Positions 14,144 to 29,017 of a stretch of DNA of 64,000 bases are shown piece after piece. Origin of the DNA: a bacterium. GTDB lineage: Bacteria; Krumholzibacteriota; Krumholzibacteriia; JACNKJ01. The notes below the pieces were generated by a model. That model was not told the origin of the DNA. It searched no databases and saw only the letters and a program-made list of their open reading frames with translations. A program made the translations under genes and the position numbers. The number at the start of each line of letters is the position of its first letter. Position 1 is the first letter of the stretch. The stretch covers positions 2,079 to 66,078 of the forward strand of contig VGXI01000001.1 in NCBI GenBank assembly GCA_016873475.1, read 5' to 3'.

Positions 14144-14254
14144 TGGGACGGCTGCACGGATGCGGGCGGGGCTGCCGCGGCAGGTGTCTACTTCGCCCGG
14201 GTGCGCTATACTGATGGGACGGTAGCCTCGCGGAAGTTCACCCTCCTGCGATAA
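14144..14254 (+). pseudogene. Orphan 3' remnant of a T9SS/FlgD-Ig-type C-terminal sorting domain (…[37 protein letters not shown])
   Basis: Only the last roughly 35 aa of the conserved C-terminal sorting domain remain, with no upstream body in frame. It lies between the RNase J-like gene and the next gene. Confidence 0.45.
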
Positions 14255-15826: not shown

Positions 15827-18325
15827 TCAGCGCAATAGCGTCAGGCGCCGGCTCTCCACTTTGCCCTCGCTGATCAAGCGGGCGAAGTAGACCCCGCTCG
15901 GCAGCTCGCGACCGCTGTCGCTGCGGCCGTCCCAGACGAGGCGCTGCGGACCGGCCGGCAGGCGTCCCGCCTGGAGATGCCGCAGCGCGCGCCCCGCCGC
16001 ATCGACGATGACGAGCCGCGCCTCGCCCGCCGCGGGCAGCGTGAAGCTGAGCGTCGTCTGCGGGTTGAAGGGGTTCGGGTAGTTCGCCAGCCCGAAGCCG
16101 GCTGCGGGAGCCTCGGCCACCGCCGTCAGGCCGTCCGTCGCGAAGTCCCAGATGCCCCGCCCGTAGGTGCCGAAGCGCATGACGCCGATGGCCGGCACGG
16201 CCTCCACGCTCCAGAAGAGCGTCAGCGGCGCGCCGGCGCCGATGTACTGCCAGCTCGCGCCGCCGGCCGGCAGCAGGTAGGGGCCGGCCTCCGTGGCCGC
16301 GTAGAGCGTCTCGCTGGCCGGGCTCTCGGCGGCGAGCATGTAGACCAGCGTGGCCGGCAGGCCCTCGCCCGCGGGCGTCCAGTTCAGGCCGCCGTCGTCG
16401 CTGCGGTAGACGGCGGGGCCGCTGTAGCCGCTGCCGCCCAGCCAGGCGCGCTGGGTCGAGAGCGGCGAGAAGGCGATCCCCGTGCCGTGGAAGTAGTGCG
16501 AGGATGGCCCCTGATCGTCGGAGTGCTGCCAGCTGGCGCCGCGGTCGTGGCTGTACCAGATCTCGCCGGTGTCCGTGACGGCGAGCCGGCGGTCCAGATC
16601 CAGCGGCGAGATCGCGAAGGCGCTGAGATAGCTGCCGCCGTACGCCGTGAAGTTCTGCGCGTGATTGGTATAGCTGACGTTGTTGCCTCCGAGCCAGCGG
16701 CCGCGGTAGAGGTACTGCCCGCAGAAGTAGTAGGCCTGCAGGTCCTCGGGATCGGCGACGATGGGCGGCAGCCACAGGTGGCTCGAGCCGGCGGGGAAGT
16801 CGAGGTAGTGGAGCCCGGGCGCGGTCTCGCCCTGCTGCACCAGCGTGAAGCCCGGGTAGACCGAGAAGACGATGCTGTGCGTCCCGTTGCCGGAGGTGAG
16901 GTGGCCGTAGTCGCCGCTGATGAGCTGGGCGAAGTCGGCGATGGGGTCGCGCAGGCCGTCCGCCCACTGGTAGCCCTGATCCTGGCTGCCGGCCGCGATG
17001 CGGTAGGGATCGTTCACGCTGGTGAGGACGTCGTAGTACTGACTGACGCCGAGCCCGTGGAGCGAGAGGTTGGTCACCGAGGCCATGCGGTCGTCGCTGC
17101 GGTAGATGCCGCCGTCCGTGCAGGGGAACCAGCGCTCGCCGAGGCCGGGGATGTTGAACACCTCCAGGCCCGGGTTGTCGGCATGGAGCTTGTGCAAGGG
17201 GTTGCCGTAGTACTCGCCCCAGCCGTTGACCTTCGTGAAGCTGCCGCCGCCGTTCGTGCTCCGCCAGGCCTCGACACCGGCGTAGACGACGATGTCGGGG
17301 TTAGTGATCGAGCAGTTGAGCGTCTCCCACCAGTCGTCCAGCTCGGCGCGGTAGGCCCAGTTGAGACCGCCGTCGGTGCTGCGCCAGAGCTCCCAGTTGT
17401 TGGCAATCCGCGCCGCCGCGTAGAAGGTCGGCGCGCCGGCCTCCGAACCCGCGAGGATCACCTTGCCCGGGTAGCTGGGCAAGTTGCCCAGGGGCGTCCA
17501 GGTGGCGCCCTGGTTCGTGCTCCGGTAGAGCGTGCGGCTGACCATCAGGTAGAGGTCGCTGCCGTCGAGGCGGTCGAGCCAGAAGTCGGCGACGCTGTTG
17601 TTCGTGTGGTTGATCAGCGTGTAGCTGCGGCCGGCATTCTCCGAGCGGTAGAGCTCTGTGCCCTGGCCCTGCGAAGCGAGCAGCAGGTAGACGCGATTCG
17701 CGTTGCCCGGATCGCGCATCACGCGCGTGGCGAGCTGGGGCACGGCCGGCAGACCGGCGGGGAGCTGCCAGGTCGCGCCCTGATCCACGCTGTAGCGGAC
17801 GACCGCGCTCGTGGAGAGCACGGTGATCACCTCGGGGTTCGTCCCGGCAACGGCGACGCCGCCGCGCACGCCGCCGTAGAGATTGTCCGAGAGGGGGCGC
17901 CAGCCGTTGCCCCAGAGGTCGCCCTTCCAGAGGCCGCCCAGGTCCGAGCCGGCGTAGAGGCTGTCGCCGGCCACCGAGATGGCCGCGCAGTGCATGCGGC
18001 CCGCCTGGTTGCGGCTGCCGATTTCTGTCCAGGTCGCCACCCGTCGGCCGGCGGCCGCGTGCCGGGCCTCGCGAGCGCGGCCGTTGGAGGCTTCGATCGT
18101 CCGCCAGTCCGTGCCGGGCGCGGCGCGGTGCATCTGCTCCATCCAGGCGCGGCGGCCCTTGCGGTTCAGGCGCTCGGCGTCCTCGTCGAGGCGGTGCTCG
18201 GTGGGCATCGGCAGCGCGCGCGAGCCGCTCGGCCACAGGCGCAGCTGCCAGGCGAAGGCGAGCGCAAGGGCGGCGCTCAGGGCGAGGGCGAAGCGCGGCA
18301 ACGCGGTCGGGAGGCGGCGCGGCAC
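15827..18325 (-). CDS. Secreted BNR/Asp-box (sortilin/sialidase-like) repeat glycosidase-like protein with T9SS-type C-terminal sorting domain
   Basis: Multiple S.D.G.TW Asp-box repeats. C-terminal NYPNPFNPQTTLSFTL...GVYFARL...RRLTLLR. Start refined to a GTG at 18325 (RBS GAAGGAG), which gives a signal peptide VPRRLPTALPRFALALSAALALAFA. Confidence 0.65.
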   Translation of the reverse strand: MPRRLPTALPRFALALSAALALAFAWQLRLWPSGSRALPMPTEHRLDEDAERLNRKGRRAWMEQMHRAAPGTDWRTIEASNGRAREARHAAAGRRVATWTEIGSRNQAGRMHCAAISVAGDSLYAGSDLGGLWKGDLWGNGWRPLSDNLYGGVRGGVAVAGTNPEVITVLSTSAVVRYSVDQGATWQLPAGLPAVPQLATRVMRDPGNANRVYLLLASQGQGTELYRSENAGRSYTLINHTNNSVADFWLDRLDGSDLYLMVSRTLYRSTNQGATWTPLGNLPSYPGKVILAGSEAGAPTFYAAARIANNWELWRSTDGGLNWAYRAELDDWWETLNCSITNPDIVVYAGVEAWRSTNGGGSFTKVNGWGEYYGNPLHKLHADNPGLEVFNIPGLGERWFPCTDGGIYRSDDRMASVTNLSLHGLGVSQYYDVLTSVNDPYRIAAGSQDQGYQWADGLRDPIADFAQLISGDYGHLTSGNGTHSIVFSVYPGFTLVQQGETAPGLHYLDFPAGSSHLWLPPIVADPEDLQAYYFCGQYLYRGRWLGGNNVSYTNHAQNFTAYGGSYLSAFAISPLDLDRRLAVTDTGEIWYSHDRGASWQHSDDQGPSSHYFHGTGIAFSPLSTQRAWLGGSGYSGPAVYRSDDGGLNWTPAGEGLPATLVYMLAAESPASETLYAATEAGPYLLPAGGASWQYIGAGAPLTLFWSVEAVPAIGVMRFGTYGRGIWDFATDGLTAVAEAPAAGFGLANYPNPFNPQTTLSFTLPAAGEARLVIVDAAGRALRHLQAGRLPAGPQRLVWDGRSDSGRELPSGVYFARLISEGKVESRRLTLLR

Positions 18326-21302: not shown

Positions 21303-22055
21303 ATGTCCCCTCGCCCCTGGCAGCGCTTTGTCCGCGCCCTCGCGCCGGCGCTCTGCGCGCTCGGGCTCAGTGCGCCGCACGCGGCGGCCGGCACGGCCCT
21401 GGCGATCAGTCCGCCGGGCGCGGTCGATACCCGCGGGCCCCGCTTCACGCTGCTCGCACCCGAGCCGGGGGCCATCCTCATCGGCGGCGAGAGCGTCACG
21501 CTGCGCTGGTCGCTCGAGGACCCCTATCTGCCGGCGGGGCAGGCCGGGCAGGCGCCGCTCGGCCTGAGCTTCCACGTGGACGGAGCGCTGGTGCACGCGG
21601 ACTCGCTGAGCCTCGCGGCGGGCATCGGTCAGCCGCCCAGCTTCGCCTACTTCTGGCTCGTCCCGTCGCTGCCCACGGAGAACTGCCGCTGGACGCTGAC
21701 TCTCGCCGACGCCTTCGGCAACCTGGGCACGATCGAGAGCGAGCCGCACCGCATCGCCACCGACGAGAGCCCCGCCGACGCGCTCGCGCCCGCGGCGCTG
21801 AGCCTCGCGCCCAATTGGCCGAACCCATTCAATCCCGCCACGCGGCTGCGTTTCGGCCTGCCCCGCGCCGGCAGCCCGCGCCTGACCATCCACGACGTGC
21901 AGGGCCGCGAGCTCGCGCGGCTCTGGGACGGCCCGCATCCAGCCGGCTGGCTCGAACTGGAATGGCGGCCGCAGGCCCTGGCCAGCGGCGTCTACTTCGC
22001 GCGTCTCGTCCTGGACGGCGAGCAGCTCACCCGCAAGCTGGTGCTCCTCAAATGA
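21303..22055 (+). CDS. Secreted hypothetical protein with T9SS-type C-terminal sorting domain
   Basis: Signal peptide. C-terminal NWPNPFNPATRLRFGLP...GVYFARLVLDGEQLTRKLVLLK. TATAAT-like element about 45 nt upstream. Confidence 0.6.
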   Translation: MSPRPWQRFVRALAPALCALGLSAPHAAAGTALAISPPGAVDTRGPRFTLLAPEPGAILIGGESVTLRWSLEDPYLPAGQAGQAPLGLSFHVDGALVHADSLSLAAGIGQPPSFAYFWLVPSLPTENCRWTLTLADAFGNLGTIESEPHRIATDESPADALAPAALSLAPNWPNPFNPATRLRFGLPRAGSPRLTIHDVQGRELARLWDGPHPAGWLELEWRPQALASGVYFARLVLDGEQLTRKLVLLK

Positions 22056-25000
22056 GCACCCATCGGCGCTCGCTGCGCATCCGGCTGGCGCTCCTCGCGC
22101 TCGGACTCGCGCCTGCGCTCGCGCGCGGCGCCGAGCCGCAGGTCGCGAACCTGAGCTTCGCCCAGCGGACGGACGGCAGCGGGCTCGTCGACATCGCCTT
22201 CGATCTCGCCGACGCCGATGGCGGCACCCTCTTCGTCAGTGTCCAGGCCAGCGAGGACGGCGGGCTCACCTGGCTGGCGCCCTGCTACAGCCTGAGCGGC
22301 GACGTGGGCGCCGGCGTGCCGGCGACGCCCGGCCGCCACGCCGTCTGGAACGCGGGCGCCGACCTGCCGGGGCGCGAGCTCGGCGACCTGCGCCTGCGCC
22401 TGCTCGCCAGCGACGAGGCCTACCCGCGCGACATGCTGCGCCTGCCCGCCGGCAGCTTCATGATGGGCGAGACGGGCGCGCGCCAGGTCACGCTCACGCG
22501 GGACTTCCTGCTCGACCGCCAAGAACTGAGCAACGCCGAGTTCCTCGGCCTCCTGCAGTGGGCGAAGAGCGTCGGCCTGCTGACGATGCACGGGAACCTG
22601 GTCGTGGCCCAGCCCAGCGGCTTGAACCTGCTCGACCTCGGCGCCTCCACCTCGGAGATCAGCTACAGCGGGCCCAGCGGGCAGTTCAGCCTGCGCCAGG
22701 CGCCAGCGGCGGCCGCCGCCTATCCCGGCGGCTACGACTCCGGACCGCACCCGCTCAAGAATCTGAGCTGGAAGGGCGCGGCGATCGTCTGCAACTGGCT
22801 GAGCCAGCGCGCGGGACTGACGCCCGCCTACTCGACGAGCAGCTGGCTCTGCGGCGGCGGCGATCCCTACGCGGCCGTCGGCTACCGCCTGCCCACAGAG
22901 GCCGAGTGGGAGTACGCGGCGCGGCTCGCGGACGGCCGCCTCTACCCCTGGGGTGGCCCGGAGGTCGACTGCGAGCGCTGCAACGGCGCGCTGGGCGCGC
23001 CCTGCCTGGGTTGGAGCGCCGCCTGCGGCGCCCACGCCGCCGGGCGCAGCCTTCTCGGCGGCGAGGACCTGGCCGGCAACCTCGGCGAGTATTGCAACGA
23101 CTGGTGGGGGTCCCTGGCCGCGGGCCAGTTCACGAACCCGAAGGGCCCGACGACCGGTATCACGCGCATCGTGCGGGGCGGAGATTTCCTCAGCGGCGCG
23201 GCGGCGCTCAAGACCACCGCCCGCGCCTCGCTGGCGCCGAACCAGGCCTCCTTCGCGACGGGCCTGCGCGTCGCGCGCAGCTGCGCGAACTCCTTCCCGG
23301 CTCCGCCCGCCGCGCCGACCCCGGCCGACGGCGCCGTGCTCATCGCGACGCAGGTGACGCTCGGCTGGACGGCGAGCGACCCCGACGGCGGGCCGCTGAG
23401 CTACGACCTCTACGTGAACGGTGCGCTGACCGCGGCCGGCCTCGCGGCCCCGAGCTACACGCTCGGCGGCCTCGCGCCCGACAGCGTGATTGCCTGGCAG
23501 GTGCTCGCGCGCGATCCGGGCGGACTCGCGCAGTGGGGCCCGCTCTGGCGCTTCGAGGCCTGGGCGCAGCCCACGGGCGAGGGCCTGCGTTTCGACTTCG
23601 ACCAGGCCTACTTCGCGAGCGAGGCGGGCGAGCTGATCGCCGATCACGCGCTGGTCTTCGCGGACGGGCGCTACCACTGCTTCCACATCTACCATCGCGC
23701 GGGCGGCGGGCCGACCCAGCTCGGGCACATCACGAGCAGCGACCTGCGTCACTGGACGCGCGAGGCCGACATCCTGCCCGTCGGCGAGGGCGAGCCCTGG
23801 GAGGCCTGGGGCATCTGGGCGCCGCAGGTGATCGCCAATCCGCTGCCGGGTCCCGCCTGGCTGATGCTCTACGCCGGCGTCAAGGGCGATGGCCGGCCCC
23901 AGCAGATCGGCCTCGCCTTCAGCGAGGACCTCTTCACCTGGTGGCGCGCAGACGCGGCGCACGAGCAGCTCAATCCCTTCTACCACCCGACGGCGGCCTG
24001 GGCGGCCTGGACGGACGACGAGGCCGCGCCCGACTGGGCCGCGCCCTGCCGCGATCCCTTCGTCTTCCACCACGAGGGCCGCTGGCGCCTGCTGGCGACC
24101 GGGAAGGCACCGGACCGGAGCGGGCTGATCCTGCTCGCCGAGGCGGCGCCGGAGAGCTTCGCCTTCCAGGGGCGCGACGCGGCGGCGCCGCTGCTGCTGC
24201 GCGCGGACATCCAGCAGCCCGAGTCGCCGCAGCTCGTGGCCGTCGACCACGCCGACGGCCAGCGGCGCTGGCACCTCTTCTACTCCGATGCGAGCGGCAC
24301 GCGGCACCAGATGGCGAGTGACCCCTTCGGCGGCCCGGGCGGCTGGTCGGGTGCCGAGGGCGCTGGCGACAACCTCGGCCTGCTCGGCTACAGCGCCGCC
24401 GAGCTCAACTGGCTCGAGGGGCGCTGGGTCTTCAGCCAGCATCACAAGGATGCGCCCGAGAACCGCTACCTGCTGCGCTTTGCGAGCCTGGACTTCGAGG
24501 CGAGCGGCGACGGCCGGCCCACCCTCGTCGAACCGGGCGGCGTGTCCGGGATCCTCGGCACCGACGGCGGCCGGCTCGAGGGCGCGCTCACCTGGGAGCT
24601 GATCGGCGCGCTGCAGGGGCACGCCTTCGAGCACCAGCCCACCTGGGGGGACAATCCGCTGTTCGATCCCGCGCGCGGCGTCGCGAGCGGGATGACGGGC
24701 AACAGCTACCTGGCCACCTACGAGCGGCATCCGCGGCCCGACACCGGCGAGCCCGGCACGCACTACGAGGACTTCAGCCGCGTCGGCTGGATCCGCAGCG
24801 CGCCCTTCCGGCTGCGCCACAACCGGCTGCGCCTGGCCGTCGGCGGCGGCCAGCAGCCGGAAGCCGAATTCGTGGCCCTCGTGCGCGAGGCGGACGGCGC
24901 CGTGCTCTTCCGCGCGACGGGCGCGGACAGCCACGTCCTCGCGCCACGGGTCTGGGATTGCGAGAGCCTGCGCGGGGAGTGGGTGCGCCTCGTCGTCGCC

Positions 25001-25180
25001 GACCTCGGCGCCGCGGATTGGGGAGCGATCGCGCTCGACGCGGTGCTTGCCTTCGAGGACCCGGACGGCAGCGCGCCGGGCGAGGCGTCCGATCCGAGTC
25101 CTGTGAGTCTCGACAGCCTGCTCGCCGCGGCGGGTTTCCCGCCGGCGCCGCGCCCGGCGCCGCCGGCGGAGCATCGCTGA
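22052..25180 (+). CDS. Large secreted multidomain protein: formylglycine-generating-enzyme (SUMF1/FGE-sulfatase)-like domain + fibronectin-III domain + GH32/43-like five-bladed beta-propeller + conserved 'WGDNPY' C-terminal module (paralog 1 of 3)
   Basis: Start MSTHRRSLRIRLALLALGLAPALA overlaps the upstream stop (ATGA). The FGE region (RLPTEAEWEYAAR...GNLGEYCNDWW...RIVRGG) and the C-terminal 550 aa are co-linear with the proteins at 27164..29017 and 33979..35838. No C-terminal sorting domain. Confidence 0.65.
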   Translation: MSTHRRSLRIRLALLALGLAPALARGAEPQVANLSFAQRTDGSGLVDIAFDLADADGGTLFVSVQASEDGGLTWLAPCYSLSGDVGAGVPATPGRHAVWNAGADLPGRELGDLRLRLLASDEAYPRDMLRLPAGSFMMGETGARQVTLTRDFLLDRQELSNAEFLGLLQWAKSVGLLTMHGNLVVAQPSGLNLLDLGASTSEISYSGPSGQFSLRQAPAAAAAYPGGYDSGPHPLKNLSWKGAAIVCNWLSQRAGLTPAYSTSSWLCGGGDPYAAVGYRLPTEAEWEYAARLADGRLYPWGGPEVDCERCNGALGAPCLGWSAACGAHAAGRSLLGGEDLAGNLGEYCNDWWGSLAAGQFTNPKGPTTGITRIVRGGDFLSGAAALKTTARASLAPNQASFATGLRVARSCANSFPAPPAAPTPADGAVLIATQVTLGWTASDPDGGPLSYDLYVNGALTAAGLAAPSYTLGGLAPDSVIAWQVLARDPGGLAQWGPLWRFEAWAQPTGEGLRFDFDQAYFASEAGELIADHALVFADGRYHCFHIYHRAGGGPTQLGHITSSDLRHWTREADILPVGEGEPWEAWGIWAPQVIANPLPGPAWLMLYAGVKGDGRPQQIGLAFSEDLFTWWRADAAHEQLNPFYHPTAAWAAWTDDEAAPDWAAPCRDPFVFHHEGRWRLLATGKAPDRSGLILLAEAAPESFAFQGRDAAAPLLLRADIQQPESPQLVAVDHADGQRRWHLFYSDASGTRHQMASDPFGGPGGWSGAEGAGDNLGLLGYSAAELNWLEGRWVFSQHHKDAPENRYLLRFASLDFEASGDGRPTLVEPGGVSGILGTDGGRLEGALTWELIGALQGHAFEHQPTWGDNPLFDPARGVASGMTGNSYLATYERHPRPDTGEPGTHYEDFSRVGWIRSAPFRLRHNRLRLAVGGGQQPEAEFVALVREADGAVLFRATGADSHVLAPRVWDCESLRGEWVRLVVADLGAADWGAIALDAVLAFEDPDGSAPGEASDPSPVSLDSLLAAAGFPPAPRPAPPAEHR

Positions 25181-25238
25181 GGTGAGCGCGCTGGCCCTCC
25201 ACCCCGCGCGCAAGCCGGTTCTCCTGAGGTGGCGCGTG

Positions 25239-25285
25239 CTCCCCTCCTCGCCGCGCCCGTTGTTTCGGGCGCGGGAGGAGGGGAG
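25239..25285. terminator. Strong GC hairpin (19-20 bp stem ctcccctcctcgccgcgccc / gggcgcgggaggaggggag, 8-nt loop) between convergent genes; putative bidirectional terminator (approximate coordinates)
   Basis: Near-perfect inverted repeat seen directly, located between the stop of the FGE-domain gene (25180) and the stop of the minus-strand DUF1670-like gene (25322). No T-tract, which is common in high-GC genomes. Confidence 0.45.
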
Positions 25286-25321
25286 AACGCGCGGTCACTT
25301 ACTCTTAGGCCATCTGACCTG

Positions 25322-26254
25322 TTAGAGATTTCTTTCCACGTCGCCGGCCCTTGCCGGCGTTCTTGTCTCCAGCCCCTGGCGCATCCGCTCCCCATCCTCT
25401 GGAGACAAAGCCACGTTGCCCTTTTTCAGAAGCGTCGCCAGCCAGGACCGGTGCCCGGCCGTCAGCAGCTCCGGATGATAGCAGTCCGCGATCACCAGGT
25501 ACTGGGCCACGGTCCGCTGCGCCTTGCCCGTCGCCTGGCAGAGCGTCGCCGCATCCAGGCCGCGGCGCAGCAGGACCTTGATCTGATCGTAGGCCTTCAG
25601 GTAGTTGTCCACCGCGGCCAGGCTGTGTCCCGTGGCACGTGCGATGTCCGGTGGACTCATCCCCTCTTCAAACCTCCTACAGATGATCCCCTTGTGCGTC
25701 GGCGAGCTGCCCATGTCCAGGACGTAGCCCTTCAGCGGCAGCGCCTCGCCCGTCTCCTGCTCGTAGGTGCGCACATACTCGTGGATCCTGCCCAGGGACC
25801 GGTTCATCAGCACCGACAGCTCCGCGCCCGTGAGCAAACCACCCTGCGCCGCTGCGCTCCGCACGAGCCGAACCAGCGTCTCGATATCGCGGCGGGCCTC
25901 CCGCCGGCGGTTGATGCGACCGTCACCCTGGCGCCCCGTCCGCATCCGCGCCTCGATCTCCGCCTTCGTCACCAGCGGCAGATGCACGATCTGCGTACCG
26001 TAAGCCTCGGCCCGCTTGCCATAGCCCACCTTCGCGCCCTCGCCCCGCTTCGTCGTCGCCCAGACGATCGTGCCCGGCTCGGCACGATCCTGCTCCGGAT
26101 AAAACTCCCGCTGCAGATCCACGATCGCTTCCGCGATCAGACGAATCACCCGATGGCTGCCCACCAGCTTGAAGTCGGTCTCCAGCAGGTGCGCGATCGC
26201 CGAGCCGAAATCACGGCGGCCCACCGTCGCGTAGCGATCCCGGGAATCACCCAT
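25322..26254 (-). CDS. DUF1670-like protein with C-terminal HTH-like region (downstream member of a tandem paralogous pair)
   Basis: Region GGLLTGAELSVLMNRSLGRIHEYVRTYEQETGEALPLKGYVLDMGSSPTHKGIICRRFEEGMSPPDIARATGHSLAAVDNYLKAYD is co-linear with the upstream paralog. Its start overlaps the upstream stop (ATGA). Local GC is about 66%, against about 74% in the flanks. Confidence 0.55.
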   Translation of the reverse strand: MGDSRDRYATVGRRDFGSAIAHLLETDFKLVGSHRVIRLIAEAIVDLQREFYPEQDRAEPGTIVWATTKRGEGAKVGYGKRAEAYGTQIVHLPLVTKAEIEARMRTGRQGDGRINRRREARRDIETLVRLVRSAAAQGGLLTGAELSVLMNRSLGRIHEYVRTYEQETGEALPLKGYVLDMGSSPTHKGIICRRFEEGMSPPDIARATGHSLAAVDNYLKAYDQIKVLLRRGLDAATLCQATGKAQRTVAQYLVIADCYHPELLTAGHRSWLATLLKKGNVALSPEDGERMRQGLETRTPARAGDVERNL

Positions 26255-27078
26255 CAGGAGCCCCCCTTTTCTTCCCCGTTCGCCGGCAGCGAGGTGCGCA
26301 CCTGCCGGGCAATCTCCGCCAAACGATCGCGGAAGGGCGACTCGGCATACTGCTCCCGTAGCCGCAGATACTCGCCCGCCAGCCGCTCGCTGATGCCCAC
26401 CACGTAGGCGATCTCACCCGCTTCACGTAGGCCCTTCTCCCACAGCACCACCACACGGCCAAAGGTCTCCACGTAGCGTTTGATCGCCCCCGCGCTGTGG
26501 CGCGTCTGGCGCATGATCGCAGAGTACGTCATCCGGCGCAGGTAGAACTCGACGATCTTGGCCTTGTGCGACTGCCCCCGTCCCATCTCCTGCACCGTGC
26601 CCCGGGTCGGCACCCAGTAGTCCGCTGCCCGCAGCGCCGCAATGTCCCGGCGGATCGTCCGCACACCGGTCTGGAGCAACCGCGAAAGGTCCTCCTGGGT
26701 CAGGACCCCGCCCTGGTCCACCGCTTCTTCACACAGACGCAGCAGCCGGACGCGGCGAACGCCCTGCAGGCCACAGCGAACCTGGATCTCCAGATCCTCC
26801 AGCCCCCCGTCCACCGTCACGACCACAGCGACCTTCTTCATCGCCGCCAACGGCTTGCCCGCCGGCTCGCGCCGGCTCACCGCCGTGATCCGCATCTGCC
26901 CTTCCCGCACGTCGGTTGCGCTGCAAGACGGCAAAAGCACCTGCTGCGCCGTGGCCAACAGGGCCCGCGATAGCGCAGGTGCCAATTCGAAATCCTGCTC
27001 GAGGGCGTAGAGAAACTGATGCTCGATCGTCTTGGCCGCCAGCCGGGGCCCCGCGCTTCCACCCATGTCCCTCCTCAC
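26254..27078 (-). CDS. DUF1670-like protein (upstream member of the tandem pair), predicted HTH
   Basis: GGVLTQEDLSRLLQTGVRTIRRDIAALRAADYWVPTRGTVQEMGRGQSHKAKIVEFYLRRMTYSAIMRQTRHSAGAIKRYVETF is paralogous to the downstream gene. Start region has GTG/ATG candidates with a GAGGAGGG RBS. Confidence 0.55.
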   Translation of the reverse strand: MRRDMGGSAGPRLAAKTIEHQFLYALEQDFELAPALSRALLATAQQVLLPSCSATDVREGQMRITAVSRREPAGKPLAAMKKVAVVVTVDGGLEDLEIQVRCGLQGVRRVRLLRLCEEAVDQGGVLTQEDLSRLLQTGVRTIRRDIAALRAADYWVPTRGTVQEMGRGQSHKAKIVEFYLRRMTYSAIMRQTRHSAGAIKRYVETFGRVVVLWEKGLREAGEIAYVVGISERLAGEYLRLREQYAESPFRDRLAEIARQVRTSLPANGEEKGGS

Positions 27079-27163
27079 TTCCGCCTGCTCAAGGCGGGGG
27101 AATGACCGGATGATTTCCGGTCACTCCCCGCCTTGGCAACGGAAAGTCAGAGGTCAGGTGGCC

Positions 27164-29017
27164 TTATTTCAGGAGCAGCAGCTTCTGCCGGCCCAGCTCG
27201 CGGCCGTCCAGGCGCAGGCGGGCGAAGTAGACACCGCTCGCCGCGCGCTGGCCCTGGGCGTCCCGGCCGTCCCAGAGGACGAAGCCCGGCCCGGCCGGCA
27301 GCTCCTCCGCGAGCAAGGTCTGCAGGACGCGGCCCTGGGCATCGAGGATGGTCAGCTCGGCGCGGCCCGCCGCCGCCAGCTCGTAGCGCAGGCGCGTGCT
27401 TGGATTGAAGGGATTGGGGTGCGGCGCGAAGAGGCGGCCGGCGCCGGCCGCCGGCGCGACGGGCGCGTCCGACCAGCCGAAGCCGGCTTCCAGCAGCACC
27501 TGCCCGAGGGTCGGCCCGTCGGTCATCGGCGCCGTGGGCGGCATCGGATCCTGGCCGACACGAACGTACTCCTCGATGCTGTCGACGGCGATGTGTCCCC
27601 AGGCCACGGTGCTCAGATCGGCGATGACGAGAAAGACCGTCTGCCCCGCGAGGCTGGCCAGGTCCCAGAGCCGCGGCGTGATCTGGTGGCTGTCGTTGCC
27701 CGTCGCCCAGAGCAGGATGCGCTGATCGCTCGCGCGCACCAGGGCGACGAAGGTGAGCCCCGGCTGGTTGCCGCCGCCGACGCGGAGGCTCAGGCGATCG
27801 CCCGTCACCGTGAAGTCGTCGCTGCGGATCAGGCCCGTCGGCACGTTGCCCTGGATGCGGCCCGGCGGGTAGATCTCCGGGTTCGGGAAGAACTCGTAGG
27901 TGGCGATGTAGCTGTTGCCCGCCATCCCGGTGGGCACGCCGCTGCGCTCGTAGGGGTTGTCGCCCCAGGTCGGCTGGTAGTTGAACGCGGTGCCGAAGAC
28001 GTTCGTCCAGTTCTCGGGCAACCCGTCGTTGAAGCTCACCGAGGGGTCGCCGCCTGGTCCGTCGAAAGCGATCTCGCCGAAGTGGTAGTAATAGCGCGTG
28101 CCGTCGCGCAGGCCGAGGCCGCGGTGCAGGCTCCACAGCTCGGGCTCGCCGGGGATGGTCGTGATCTCGCAGGCGTGCCCCTCGTCGATGTAGGTGCGGT
28201 TCTCCTTCGACCAGCCGCCGAGGAAGGTGGGGCTCGCGATGTGGCTGATCTGTTGCTGGCCCCCCTCGGTGAAGAACAGGTGGTAGTTGCCGCCCCGCTT
28301 CACGAGCTGCACGCTCTCGAGCACGTTCTGGCTGTCGTTGACGAAGAAGGCGCCGCGGTCCATCCAGGGGCCGAGGTTGAAGCTGAGGGCGTAGCTGATG
28401 GCGCCCAGGGTGTCCGGCGCCGCCGAGGCCGTATTCAGCAGGTACCAGCTGCTGCTGCCGTCCTCGTGGAAGATCTCGGGGTCGCGGCAGTTCGACCACT
28501 GCCCCGACGACCAGATCGCCCAGCTCCCCGGACGATAGATCGGGTTGTTCGGGTAGCGATACCAGTTGTAGAGGTTGTAGCTCGAGGCGAGGCCGGTCTG
28601 CTGGGTGACGGTGTAGTTGGCACCCGTGTAGTACATCAGCCAGTCGTTGCTGTTGGGATCATCGATGATCTTCGGCGCCCAGATGAACTCCGACTCCCAG
28701 GCCGGCGGATTCGGAATGTCGATCGAGAGGATGCTGTCCTGCCGCGCCCAGTGGCGCAGGTCGGGGCTGGTGATGTGGCCGAACCACTGCTCCTTGCGCA
28801 GGTAGTGGCCGCTAGGCGGCAGGCTCTGGATGTAGAAGACGTGGTAGAGCCCGTTGTGCTTGACCACCGCGTGGTCCTTGCACTGCAGGCCCATCGTCTC
28901 GAGGAAGTAGGGCTGCTCGAAGTCGGTGACGTGCAGCGCCCCTGCCGGCGCGGCCCTGAGCGTCAGAGCCGCAAGTCCCAGCAGAAGGGCCTGCGCGACC
29001 ATGGGGAGTCGTGGCAT
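27164..29017 (-). CDS. Secreted GH32/43-like five-bladed beta-propeller + 'WGDNPY' module protein with T9SS-type C-terminal sorting domain (paralog 2 of 3)
   Basis: Signal peptide MPRLPMVAQALLLGLAALTLRAAPAGA. Motifs YHVFYI, IWAPKII, NCRDPEIF, YHLFFTE, QPTWGDNPY, GNSYIATYE. C-terminal PNPFNPSTRLRYEL...GVYFARLRLDG...QKLLLLK. Confidence 0.7.
   Translation of the reverse strand: MPRLPMVAQALLLGLAALTLRAAPAGALHVTDFEQPYFLETMGLQCKDHAVVKHNGLYHVFYIQSLPPSGHYLRKEQWFGHITSPDLRHWARQDSILSIDIPNPPAWESEFIWAPKIIDDPNSNDWLMYYTGANYTVTQQTGLASSYNLYNWYRYPNNPIYRPGSWAIWSSGQWSNCRDPEIFHEDGSSSWYLLNTASAAPDTLGAISYALSFNLGPWMDRGAFFVNDSQNVLESVQLVKRGGNYHLFFTEGGQQQISHIASPTFLGGWSKENRTYIDEGHACEITTIPGEPELWSLHRGLGLRDGTRYYYHFGEIAFDGPGGDPSVSFNDGLPENWTNVFGTAFNYQPTWGDNPYERSGVPTGMAGNSYIATYEFFPNPEIYPPGRIQGNVPTGLIRSDDFTVTGDRLSLRVGGGNQPGLTFVALVRASDQRILLWATGNDSHQITPRLWDLASLAGQTVFLVIADLSTVAWGHIAVDSIEEYVRVGQDPMPPTAPMTDGPTLGQVLLEAGFGWSDAPVAPAAGAGRLFAPHPNPFNPSTRLRYELAAAGRAELTILDAQGRVLQTLLAEELPAGPGFVLWDGRDAQGQRAASGVYFARLRLDGRELGRQKLLLLK

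Follow-up and report, generated by a model that had tools for sequence, protein, structure and literature searches.

A DUF1670 gene pair as the probable coding content of an IS-like mobile element inserted at the last codon of secretion-cargo genes

Two adjacent minus-strand genes encoding proteins of the Pfam family DUF1670 (PF07900), hereafter genes A and B, lie in a 64,000-nucleotide (nt) stretch of contig VGXI01000001.1 (assembly GCA_016873475.1, Krumholzibacteriota), which is referred to below as the window and to which the coordinates given here belong. An inspection of the letters alone (the sequence-only reading) had taken the pair for a self-contained, compositionally distinct and horizontally acquired two-gene module, a description that agrees with the lack of the pair at orthologous loci and in an allele that is otherwise identical. 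The terminal inverted repeats (TIRs), the 2-bp target duplication and the codon-precise target, which had gone unremarked in that reading, identify the module as a transposable element. The element has moved: its ends are inverted, it is bordered by a 2-bp duplication, it enters a codon-precise and orientation-specific target, and it leaves the host protein preserved. We consider it probable (roughly 0.7) that the DUF1670 pair constitutes the coding content of a 1.87-kb insertion sequence (IS)-like transposable element, of a family without prior description. The features of the locus, including its Shine-Dalgarno (SD), helix-turn-helix (HTH) and type IX secretion system (T9SS) components, are as follows.

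25301..27167, minus strand: complete mobile element, 1,867 bp, reading 5'-ATAAGGCCACCTGACC ... GGTCAGATGGCCTAAGAGT-3' on the minus strand
27168..27169, minus strand: left-hand AA of the 2-bp target duplication, the first two nt of the last codon in the host gene
25299..25300, minus strand: right-hand AA of the 2-bp target duplication, with G (25298) and then TGA (25297-25295) after it
27152..27166, minus strand: left TIR arm TAAGGCCACCTGACC, with the 12-nt core GGCCACCTGACC at 27163-27152; includes the TAA that terminates the host gene
25305..25319, minus strand: right TIR arm GGTCAGATGGCCTAA, with the core at 25319-25308; four further element bases (GAGT) lead to the end
27149..27155, minus strand: putative anti-SD segment, GACCTCT in the window (family consensus GTCCTCC), which could pair with the SD of gene A in transcripts coming from the host gene
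27078..27145, minus strand: long 5'-leader hairpin of about 30 bp (dG -51.6 kcal/mol; z -9.2)
27139..27110, minus strand: promoter-like TTGCCA(27139-27134)-N18-AATCAT(27115-27110), embedded in the leader hairpin
26254..27066, minus strand: gene A, DUF1670 protein of 270 amino acids (aa), with an N-terminal alpha/beta region, a long helix and three HTH modules
25322..26254, minus strand: gene B, a second DUF1670 protein (310 aa) paralogous to A, with translational coupling to A (ATGA)
27164..29017, minus strand: target (host) gene, a secreted GH32-type glycosidase with a FlgD_ig/T9SS C-terminal domain (CTD), its last codon and stop rebuilt by the element
25232..25292, no strand: terminator-like host hairpin between convergent genes, outside the element; the hairpin of the sequence-only reading

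The element and its two DUF1670 genes

The boundaries of the element were set from near-identical copies in differing flanks together with a filled and an empty site. At the left end, the element contributes A (27167), which completes the last codon of the host as its third base, and the stop TAA (27166-27164). At the right end, what remains of the target after the duplication is its former third base of the last codon, G (25298), and its original stop, TGA (25297-25295). The composition of the element is distinct: its GC content, at 66.3%, is the minimum among windows of 1,867 nt across the 64 kb (0.2 percentile; mean 71.7%), and its GC at third codon positions is 0.84, compared with 0.94 in both neighboring genes. 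The low-GC pocket of the sequence-only reading is therefore genuine, whereas the flanking value of 73-75% that accompanied it applies to the low-coordinate side only, the gene at 27164-29017 having 68%. No conserved antisense open reading frame (ORF), i.e., a hidden third gene, was found in the element, where open stretches scale with GC. As judged from sequence, the element appears to encode two multi-HTH DNA binders and nothing else recognizable.

The ORF of the first gene spans 26254..27078 (minus strand), but the GTG at 27078 is a mechanical start only; the likely true start is the ATG at 27066, giving 270 aa as in all homologs and served by the SD GAGGAGGG at 27076-27069. Both proteins are full-length members of PF07900, with gene A scoring 173.3 bits (model 1-220, E 6e-51) and gene B 130.7 bits (model 1-219, E 7e-38) against a gathering cut-off of 25 bits. 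The two proteins share 27% identity over 192 aa (E 4e-15), and hhalign gives a probability of 98% over the HTH-rich C-terminal 145 columns; the stop of A and the start of B overlap in an ATGA at 26254-26257. The paralogy, the family assignment and the overlapping start proposed from the letters alone were thus recovered, and the HTH-like segments of both proteins proved real in profile search and model. In the AlphaFold2 model of A (pLDDT 70), an ill-defined helical part at the N-terminus precedes a beta-hairpin, a helix of 29 residues and three HTH/winged-HTH modules; the model of B, although poor (pLDDT 57), has the same layout. Across 99 diverse members of the family, the conserved residues fall mostly at HTH positions. 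A tyrosine-recombinase-like reading of conserved R/H/Y residues was rejected, as these residues sit on helices of the second HTH in the model. The DNA-binding part of A and B produced weak matches to HTH_29 (27.0 bits; cut-off 28.1), HTH_23 and HTH_28, and a PDB profile search with the DUF1670 proteins returned one marginal match. In the profile searches, no recognized transposase catalytic domain (DDE, DEDD, HUH, Ser or Tyr) was present in the proteins of the element.

The DUF1670 family comprises about 1,277 clusters at 50% identity and carries no functional annotation in Pfam, and its members are labeled 'hypothetical' or 'CsgD family' (transcriptional) regulator in the sources. Hundreds of relatives of both proteins at 65-76% identity were found, mostly on contigs about 2 kb long; on long contigs, the pair is often located at one end. 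B follows A in every locus. The named relatives found all come from metagenome-assembled genomes (MAGs) of the FCB group or of candidate phyla, and no relative was found on plasmids (tblastn) or on viral contigs (scan). Natural fusions join two or three DUF1670 units with no further domain except GGDEF fragments in two proteins, which suggests that the units act jointly as one multi-HTH assembly. The three-unit fusions P0259, P0264, P0267 and P0288 measure 930-952 aa and the two-unit fusions P0309, P0333 and P0343 measure 528-544 aa, on contigs of 3.5-7 kb.

Copies, empty sites and target genes

A 4.7-Mb long-read MAG contig (JADJQR010000001.1) carries three copies with identical ends and differing flanks, the flanks diverging immediately before 'ATAAGG' on the 5' side and immediately after '..AGT' plus 2 nt on the 3' side, and an identical element found in two contexts (L004 versus L005/L006) has the same divergence points. 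The window's own element recurs at 99.7-99.8% nucleotide identity on Lake Tanganyika metagenome contigs, where it exhibits at least two left flanks (the GH32 gene and, in L123, another CTD gene) and three right flanks, and copies in different contexts differ from one another by 0-2 nt; contigs of 1,870-1,883 nt consisting of the element only also exist. The clustering of contigs near 2 kb, considered as proof of repetition, is suggestive only, since contig overhangs are broad. Decayed copies were also observed: L062 (1,445 bp) has an internal deletion and intact ends, and in L022 and L024, both on JADJQR010000001.1, A and B are frameshifted or fragmented, unless these are long-read errors, the left flank of L022 not being a CTD.

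The insertion itself can be followed on one host gene. In contig L121, the identical 617-aa host protein ends ..CTG AAG TAG, with a RarA/MgsA gene directly after it and no element. On the identical host gene, the left junction reads ..CTG AA|A TAA GG.. (L119/L120), and the right junction, ..AGT|AA|G TAG, is joined to the RarA flank of L121 at 98.8% identity (L108/L109). Set against each other, these contigs constitute the pre- and post-insertion pair that a transposition model predicts. Additionally, at the orthologous glpX-TPR-GH32 loci of three related lineages (77-86% protein identity), the pair is absent and the gene ends with AAG and a stop. Size under about 2.5 kb, TIRs, a target duplication, multiple copies and an empty site, the structural marks of an IS, were therefore all found; the remaining mark, a recognizable transposase, was not.

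The target obeys a strict rule. Among the 34 loci with both ends, 31 have a 2-nt duplication equal to nt 1-2 of the host's last codon (CG in 20, AA in 7, AG in 4); the left flank always ends in NN followed by A TAA, and the 2 nt past the right end repeat NN. A stop codon stands at +4..+6 after the right end, that is, one base after the duplication, in 38 of 42 distinct right flanks. These flank rules define the target as '[CG|AG|AA]N + stop' and place the insertion point in the last sense codon, an Arg (CGN/AGR) or Lys (AAR) codon, between its second and third base. The first four bases of the element (A + TAA) restore the codon and supply the stop, and the host protein is consequently unchanged. 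In L020, with AG on the right side, the predicted AGA codon on the left was confirmed. Insertion is co-directional with the target gene in every case. Upstream peptides match FlgD_ig in 35/40 distinct cases and Por_Secre_tail in 26/40, and the consensus of the target DNA, ..CGG AAG ATG GTG CTG CTG CG|N, corresponds to the final beta-strand of the T9SS sorting domain. At least seven FlgD/T9SS-type gene ends lie in the window, and only one of them is occupied. The six unoccupied ends of the form '..[RK]xLxLL[RK] stop' (stops at 14252, 15735, 22053 and 35836 on the plus strand, and at 15827 and 61666 on the minus strand) are potential target sites in a stretch rich in T9SS cargo. The 'CGATAAGG' at 14249 was rejected as an excision footprint, being the SD of the next gene.

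Both neighbors of the element are secreted-protein genes, as the sequence-only reading had it. To the right, the element is followed by G TGA, a hairpin and a convergent gene of 1,042 aa. This convergent neighbor (22052-25180, plus strand) encodes a large secreted protein with a GldK/FGE-sulfatase-like region (NCBIfam GldK, E 2e-10), whose C-terminal part resembles the GH32-type host protein in sequence style and which has no exact protein match in the collection. RarA is not in the window, while the GH32...RarA synteny is present in the empty allele and in a relative. The arrangement in the window is probably real, because two independent contigs (L122 and L124) reproduce it, and the break between GH32 and RarA is most simply read as homologous recombination between two element copies, the alternative being a recurrent chimeric assembly join across the 1.87-kb repeat. 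Similarly, in L028, L030 and L076 (Lake Tanganyika, 23-53 kb), which carry one element lineage, equal right flanks accompany different left flanks and vice versa, and these swaps would result either from recombination of one copy with another or from chimeric assembly across the repeat. The inverted repeat that the sequence-only reading placed at the 3' side does exist, with arms at 25232-25249 and 25275-25292 matching at 17/18 positions, an inner 9-bp stem, about 28 bp in total and a dG of -60.5 kcal/mol. It does not bound the module, since it lies beyond the right end of the element between convergent genes; it adjoins the right junction in independent contigs too, and it is host DNA outside the element whichever way the synteny break arose.

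Terminal repeats, leader hairpin and a proposed course of movement

A DNA alignment of six loci revealed conserved non-coding motifs on either side of the pair, ..ATAAGGCCATATGTCC.. upstream of A and ..GGACATATGGCCTAAGAGT right after B, which are mutually inverted. The TIR arms they form are 15 nt long and, over 20 distinct elements, 92% complementary; they covary at four positions, with 20 cells changed on both sides, an observed score reached by 0 of 500 shuffles. Each arm is built around the near-palindromic 12-nt core GGNCANNTGNCC, which in some lineages takes the form of a perfect palindrome, GGACATATGTCC, a symmetry compatible with recognition by a dimer or an A-B heterodimer. The window contains only two matches to GGNCANNTGNCC, both of them TIR cores; as about 2-3 matches are expected by chance, their significance lies in their positions.

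The left arm begins TAAGG.. in the clade that targets CTD genes, thereby creating the TAA stop of the host gene, and TTAGG.. in a distant clade, where it is a perfect inverted copy of the right CCTAA. This more distant clade (41-49% identity) has the plan and core of the CTD-targeting clade. It comprises L077-L104 (A 44-49% identical), with A followed by B, cores GGACACTTGTCC on the left and GGACAGGTGTCC on the right, ends ATTA.. and ..TAAACGA, and a 2-nt repeat AA/GA in 10/12. Its elements are not adjacent to CTD genes. The sequence ..TGA NN is frequent at their left flanks, but not where real ORFs end; a target of 'stop codon + 2' was considered for this clade and found no support in ORF analysis.

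Between the left arm and gene A, a leader hairpin of about 30 bp is conserved across the family (median dG -38.5 kcal/mol, median z -5), with z below -2 in 44/46 leaders and pairing kept while the sequence differs among lineages. RNAalifold pairs the inner left-end GTCCTCC with the SD GGAGGAC, seven pairs being kept in 22-30 of 30 sequences, and this pairing is weaker in the window copy. A TTGNNN-N16-18-TANNNT motif stands at a fixed position, its -35 at the stem base and its -10 in the loop, in 28/46 leaders compared with 5% of shuffles. An Rfam scan of 24900-27400 yielded no credible family, and the idea of an RNA guide, a leader complementary to the target, was dropped after inspection revealed 6-nt matches at chance level only. 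The leader hairpin resembles the very strong GC-rich hairpins that follow host genes: in these high-GC genomes, hairpins of about -60 kcal/mol without U-tracts occur within 110 nt after genes, for instance downstream of the GH32 orthologs in L113, L117 and L118 and at 25232-25292 in the window.

These features are consistent with the following course of events. A and B, with three HTH modules each and coupled translation, would occupy the two inverted cores, probably in the form of a hetero-oligomer, and draw the ends together; they would either perform or recruit the 2-bp-staggered cleavage and joining. The leader hairpin and the anti-SD segment at the left end may insulate A and B from transcription reading in from the host gene: by analogy with control of the IS10/IS50 type, read-through transcripts from the host gene would fold the hairpin and hide the SD, and transcripts from the embedded promoter would lack the 5' arm, leave the SD free and be translated.

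Competing explanations and relation to known mobile elements

Several observations weigh against the interpretation as an IS-like element driven by its own two genes. No catalytic fold or motif was detectable in A or B by Pfam, PDB profile search, models or conservation, and the N-terminal part of the DUF1670 proteins has one family-wide conserved acidic residue only; its 50-115 residues are modeled at low confidence, and a small novel active site there could therefore escape view. The ends are asymmetric, as the element continues for 1 nt outside the left arm but for 4 nt outside the right one, which is unusual for DDE-type elements. Among 118 loci, neither a circle junction nor a tandem copy was found; an excised circle, if formed, would carry the junction ..CCTAAGAGT NN ATAAGGCC... 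The duplication rule has three exceptions (L031, L034 and L058): two are mismatches, located on short contigs that may be chimeric, and the third case is undetermined. CTDs are lacking at a few left flanks (L022, L037, L055 and L060), and the promoter-like motif is confined to the 28 of 46 leaders given above. As to the window itself, its right flank is not the ancestral neighbor of GH32, and contiguity across the repeat rests on three concordant assemblies (the window, L122 and L124).

The lack of a detectable catalytic fold also lends itself to an explanation in which the element is a non-autonomous cassette, where an unlinked transposase or recombinase encoded by the host or by another element acts on the inverted cores, with A and B as passengers, either end-binding accessory or targeting factors or self-regulators. 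The fused DUF1670 proteins of two or three units, which add HTH modules only, are in keeping with this, and abutted ends would give two 15-nt arms around a 7-bp spacer, a layout that might be read as a tyrosine-recombinase core site. We nevertheless regard this explanation as unlikely, though worth serious attention: A and B are the sole conserved genes over 41-100% identity and always occur with the same core repeats, no second gene class was seen beside any copy, the identity between element and target is limited to 2 nt and does not reach a 6-8-bp overlap, and no master element with these repeats was seen among the loci, whole genomes not having been scanned. The arms could also act at the RNA level, with the 12-15-nt arms pairing in the host-gene-A-B read-through transcript and looping out the A-B message for processing or stability, instead of or besides serving as protein-binding DNA ends. 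Their covariation agrees with such a role, as do several single mismatches that G-U pairing would tolerate, among them the fixed pair L CACTTG / R CAGGTG of the distant clade; yet wobble-compatible mismatches (5) are no commoner than other mismatches (4), the core itself is a near-palindrome typical of a dimeric HTH operator, and the points of flank divergence coincide with the arms, as for transposon ends, so that an RNA-level role appears improbable.

The sequence-only reading had favored a regulatory, addiction or defense-associated cassette, for which PADLOC, PHROGs and NCBIfam yielded only generic HTH matches. A defense or addiction (toxin-antitoxin-like) cassette on a mobile backbone would share the two-gene, translationally coupled and horizontally moving organization of the pair, but this is very hard to maintain, since the best PADLOC matches (WYL, E 0.001, 16.7 bits; mad1, E 0.012) are confined to the HTH, PHROGs returned nothing, no toxin-like domain is present in what are two paralogous DNA binders, no relative was found on plasmids or viral contigs, and the neighborhoods hold secreted hydrolases in place of the suggested enrichment in defense islands. 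To a resident, vertically inherited operon regulating the neighboring secreted-protein genes we attach next to no credence. The multi-HTH architecture, the name 'CsgD family transcriptional regulator' given to some relatives and the constant position of the pair beside T9SS cargo genes would suit it; it is contradicted by the missing pair at orthologous loci and in the allele with the identical host gene, and opposed by near-identical copies in unrelated flanks, by the TIRs and target duplication and by the foreign composition.

Returning to the IS-like element, we propose only tentatively, at somewhat less than even odds, how its proteins might work. DUF1670 would be either a new class of transposase or recombinase unrelated to the DDE, DEDD, HUH, serine and tyrosine enzymes, or a DNA-binding machine that hijacks a host nuclease; in both cases an A/B hetero-oligomer would read its own near-palindromic ends and the degenerate T9SS DNA of the last beta-strand, placing the element with single-nucleotide, reading-frame precision while leaving the host gene intact.

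Among known systems, IS630/Tc1-mariner elements are the closest in layout, being small, with short TIRs and a 2-bp duplication, and the HTH part of DUF1670 weakly matches their bipartite HTH families. The DUF1670 element differs from them in having no DDE_3/RNase-H domain in searches, a CG/AG/AA instead of a TA duplication, two (sometimes three) paralogous ORFs, asymmetric ends and a target specific to the coding frame. Orientation-specific insertion at the end of a conserved gene with preservation of its product is shared with Tn7 at attTn7 (downstream of glmS) and with integrative elements that restore the 3' end of a tRNA gene, where the element likewise supplies the missing end sequence. 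However, Tn7 uses TnsABC+D and a single chromosomal site, and the integrative elements use tyrosine or serine integrases, none of which is encoded here, and unlike that of Tn7 the target of the DUF1670 element is a whole gene family (T9SS cargo) with many sites per genome. Elements with an integrase of their own share 6-8 bp (tyrosine type) or a central 2 bp (serine type) between attP and attB. In the DUF1670 element there is no integrase gene; a 2-nt identity is seen, which lies off-center between the arms (7+2+4 nt) and varies between CG, AG and AA among related elements.

Two features, complementarity between a segment at the left end and the first gene's SD and translational coupling of the ORFs, recall the fold-back inhibition of IS10/IS50, though by analogy only; features of this type keep transposase expression low, independent of read-through. 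The leader hairpin of about 30 bp with a promoter-like motif is an addition of the DUF1670 element. IS1111/IS110 and IS200/IS605 elements are likewise highly target-specific, with asymmetric ends and, beside one end, a non-coding region of conserved structure. Their enzymes, however, are of the DEDD or HUH-Y1 type (together with bridge/seek RNA or TnpB), none of which was found in the DUF1670 element, and they have neither TIRs of this type nor a 2-bp duplication; with regard to IS200/IS605 in particular, there is no Y1_Tnp match, and the hairpin is at the left end only. Literature searches (DUF1670, PF07900, Eisenbacteria with IS, T9SS with IS) returned nothing relevant on the domain or on such an element, and no curated family describing one was found. 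As far as the searched sources show, the link between DUF1670 and a mobile element is new, and we regard the element as a new IS-like family, with a substantial chance that its enzymology is new as well.

Metagenomic work is affected in a practical way: in Eisenbacteria, Krumholzibacteria, Latescibacterota and relatives, the element causes assemblies to break at T9SS cargo genes, and chimeric or rearranged joins can result from it, the window itself showing a synteny break at the element. The element is a candidate new family for the catalogue of prokaryotic transposable elements and provides a first functional context for the Pfam domain DUF1670; since the DUF1670 proteins lack a known catalytic fold, its chemistry may be new. 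Its targeting can be called 'harmless', in that the last codon of a whole gene class, T9SS cargo, is hit and the codon and stop are rebuilt, and this strategy is relevant to the study of target-site recognition and possibly to programmable insertion.

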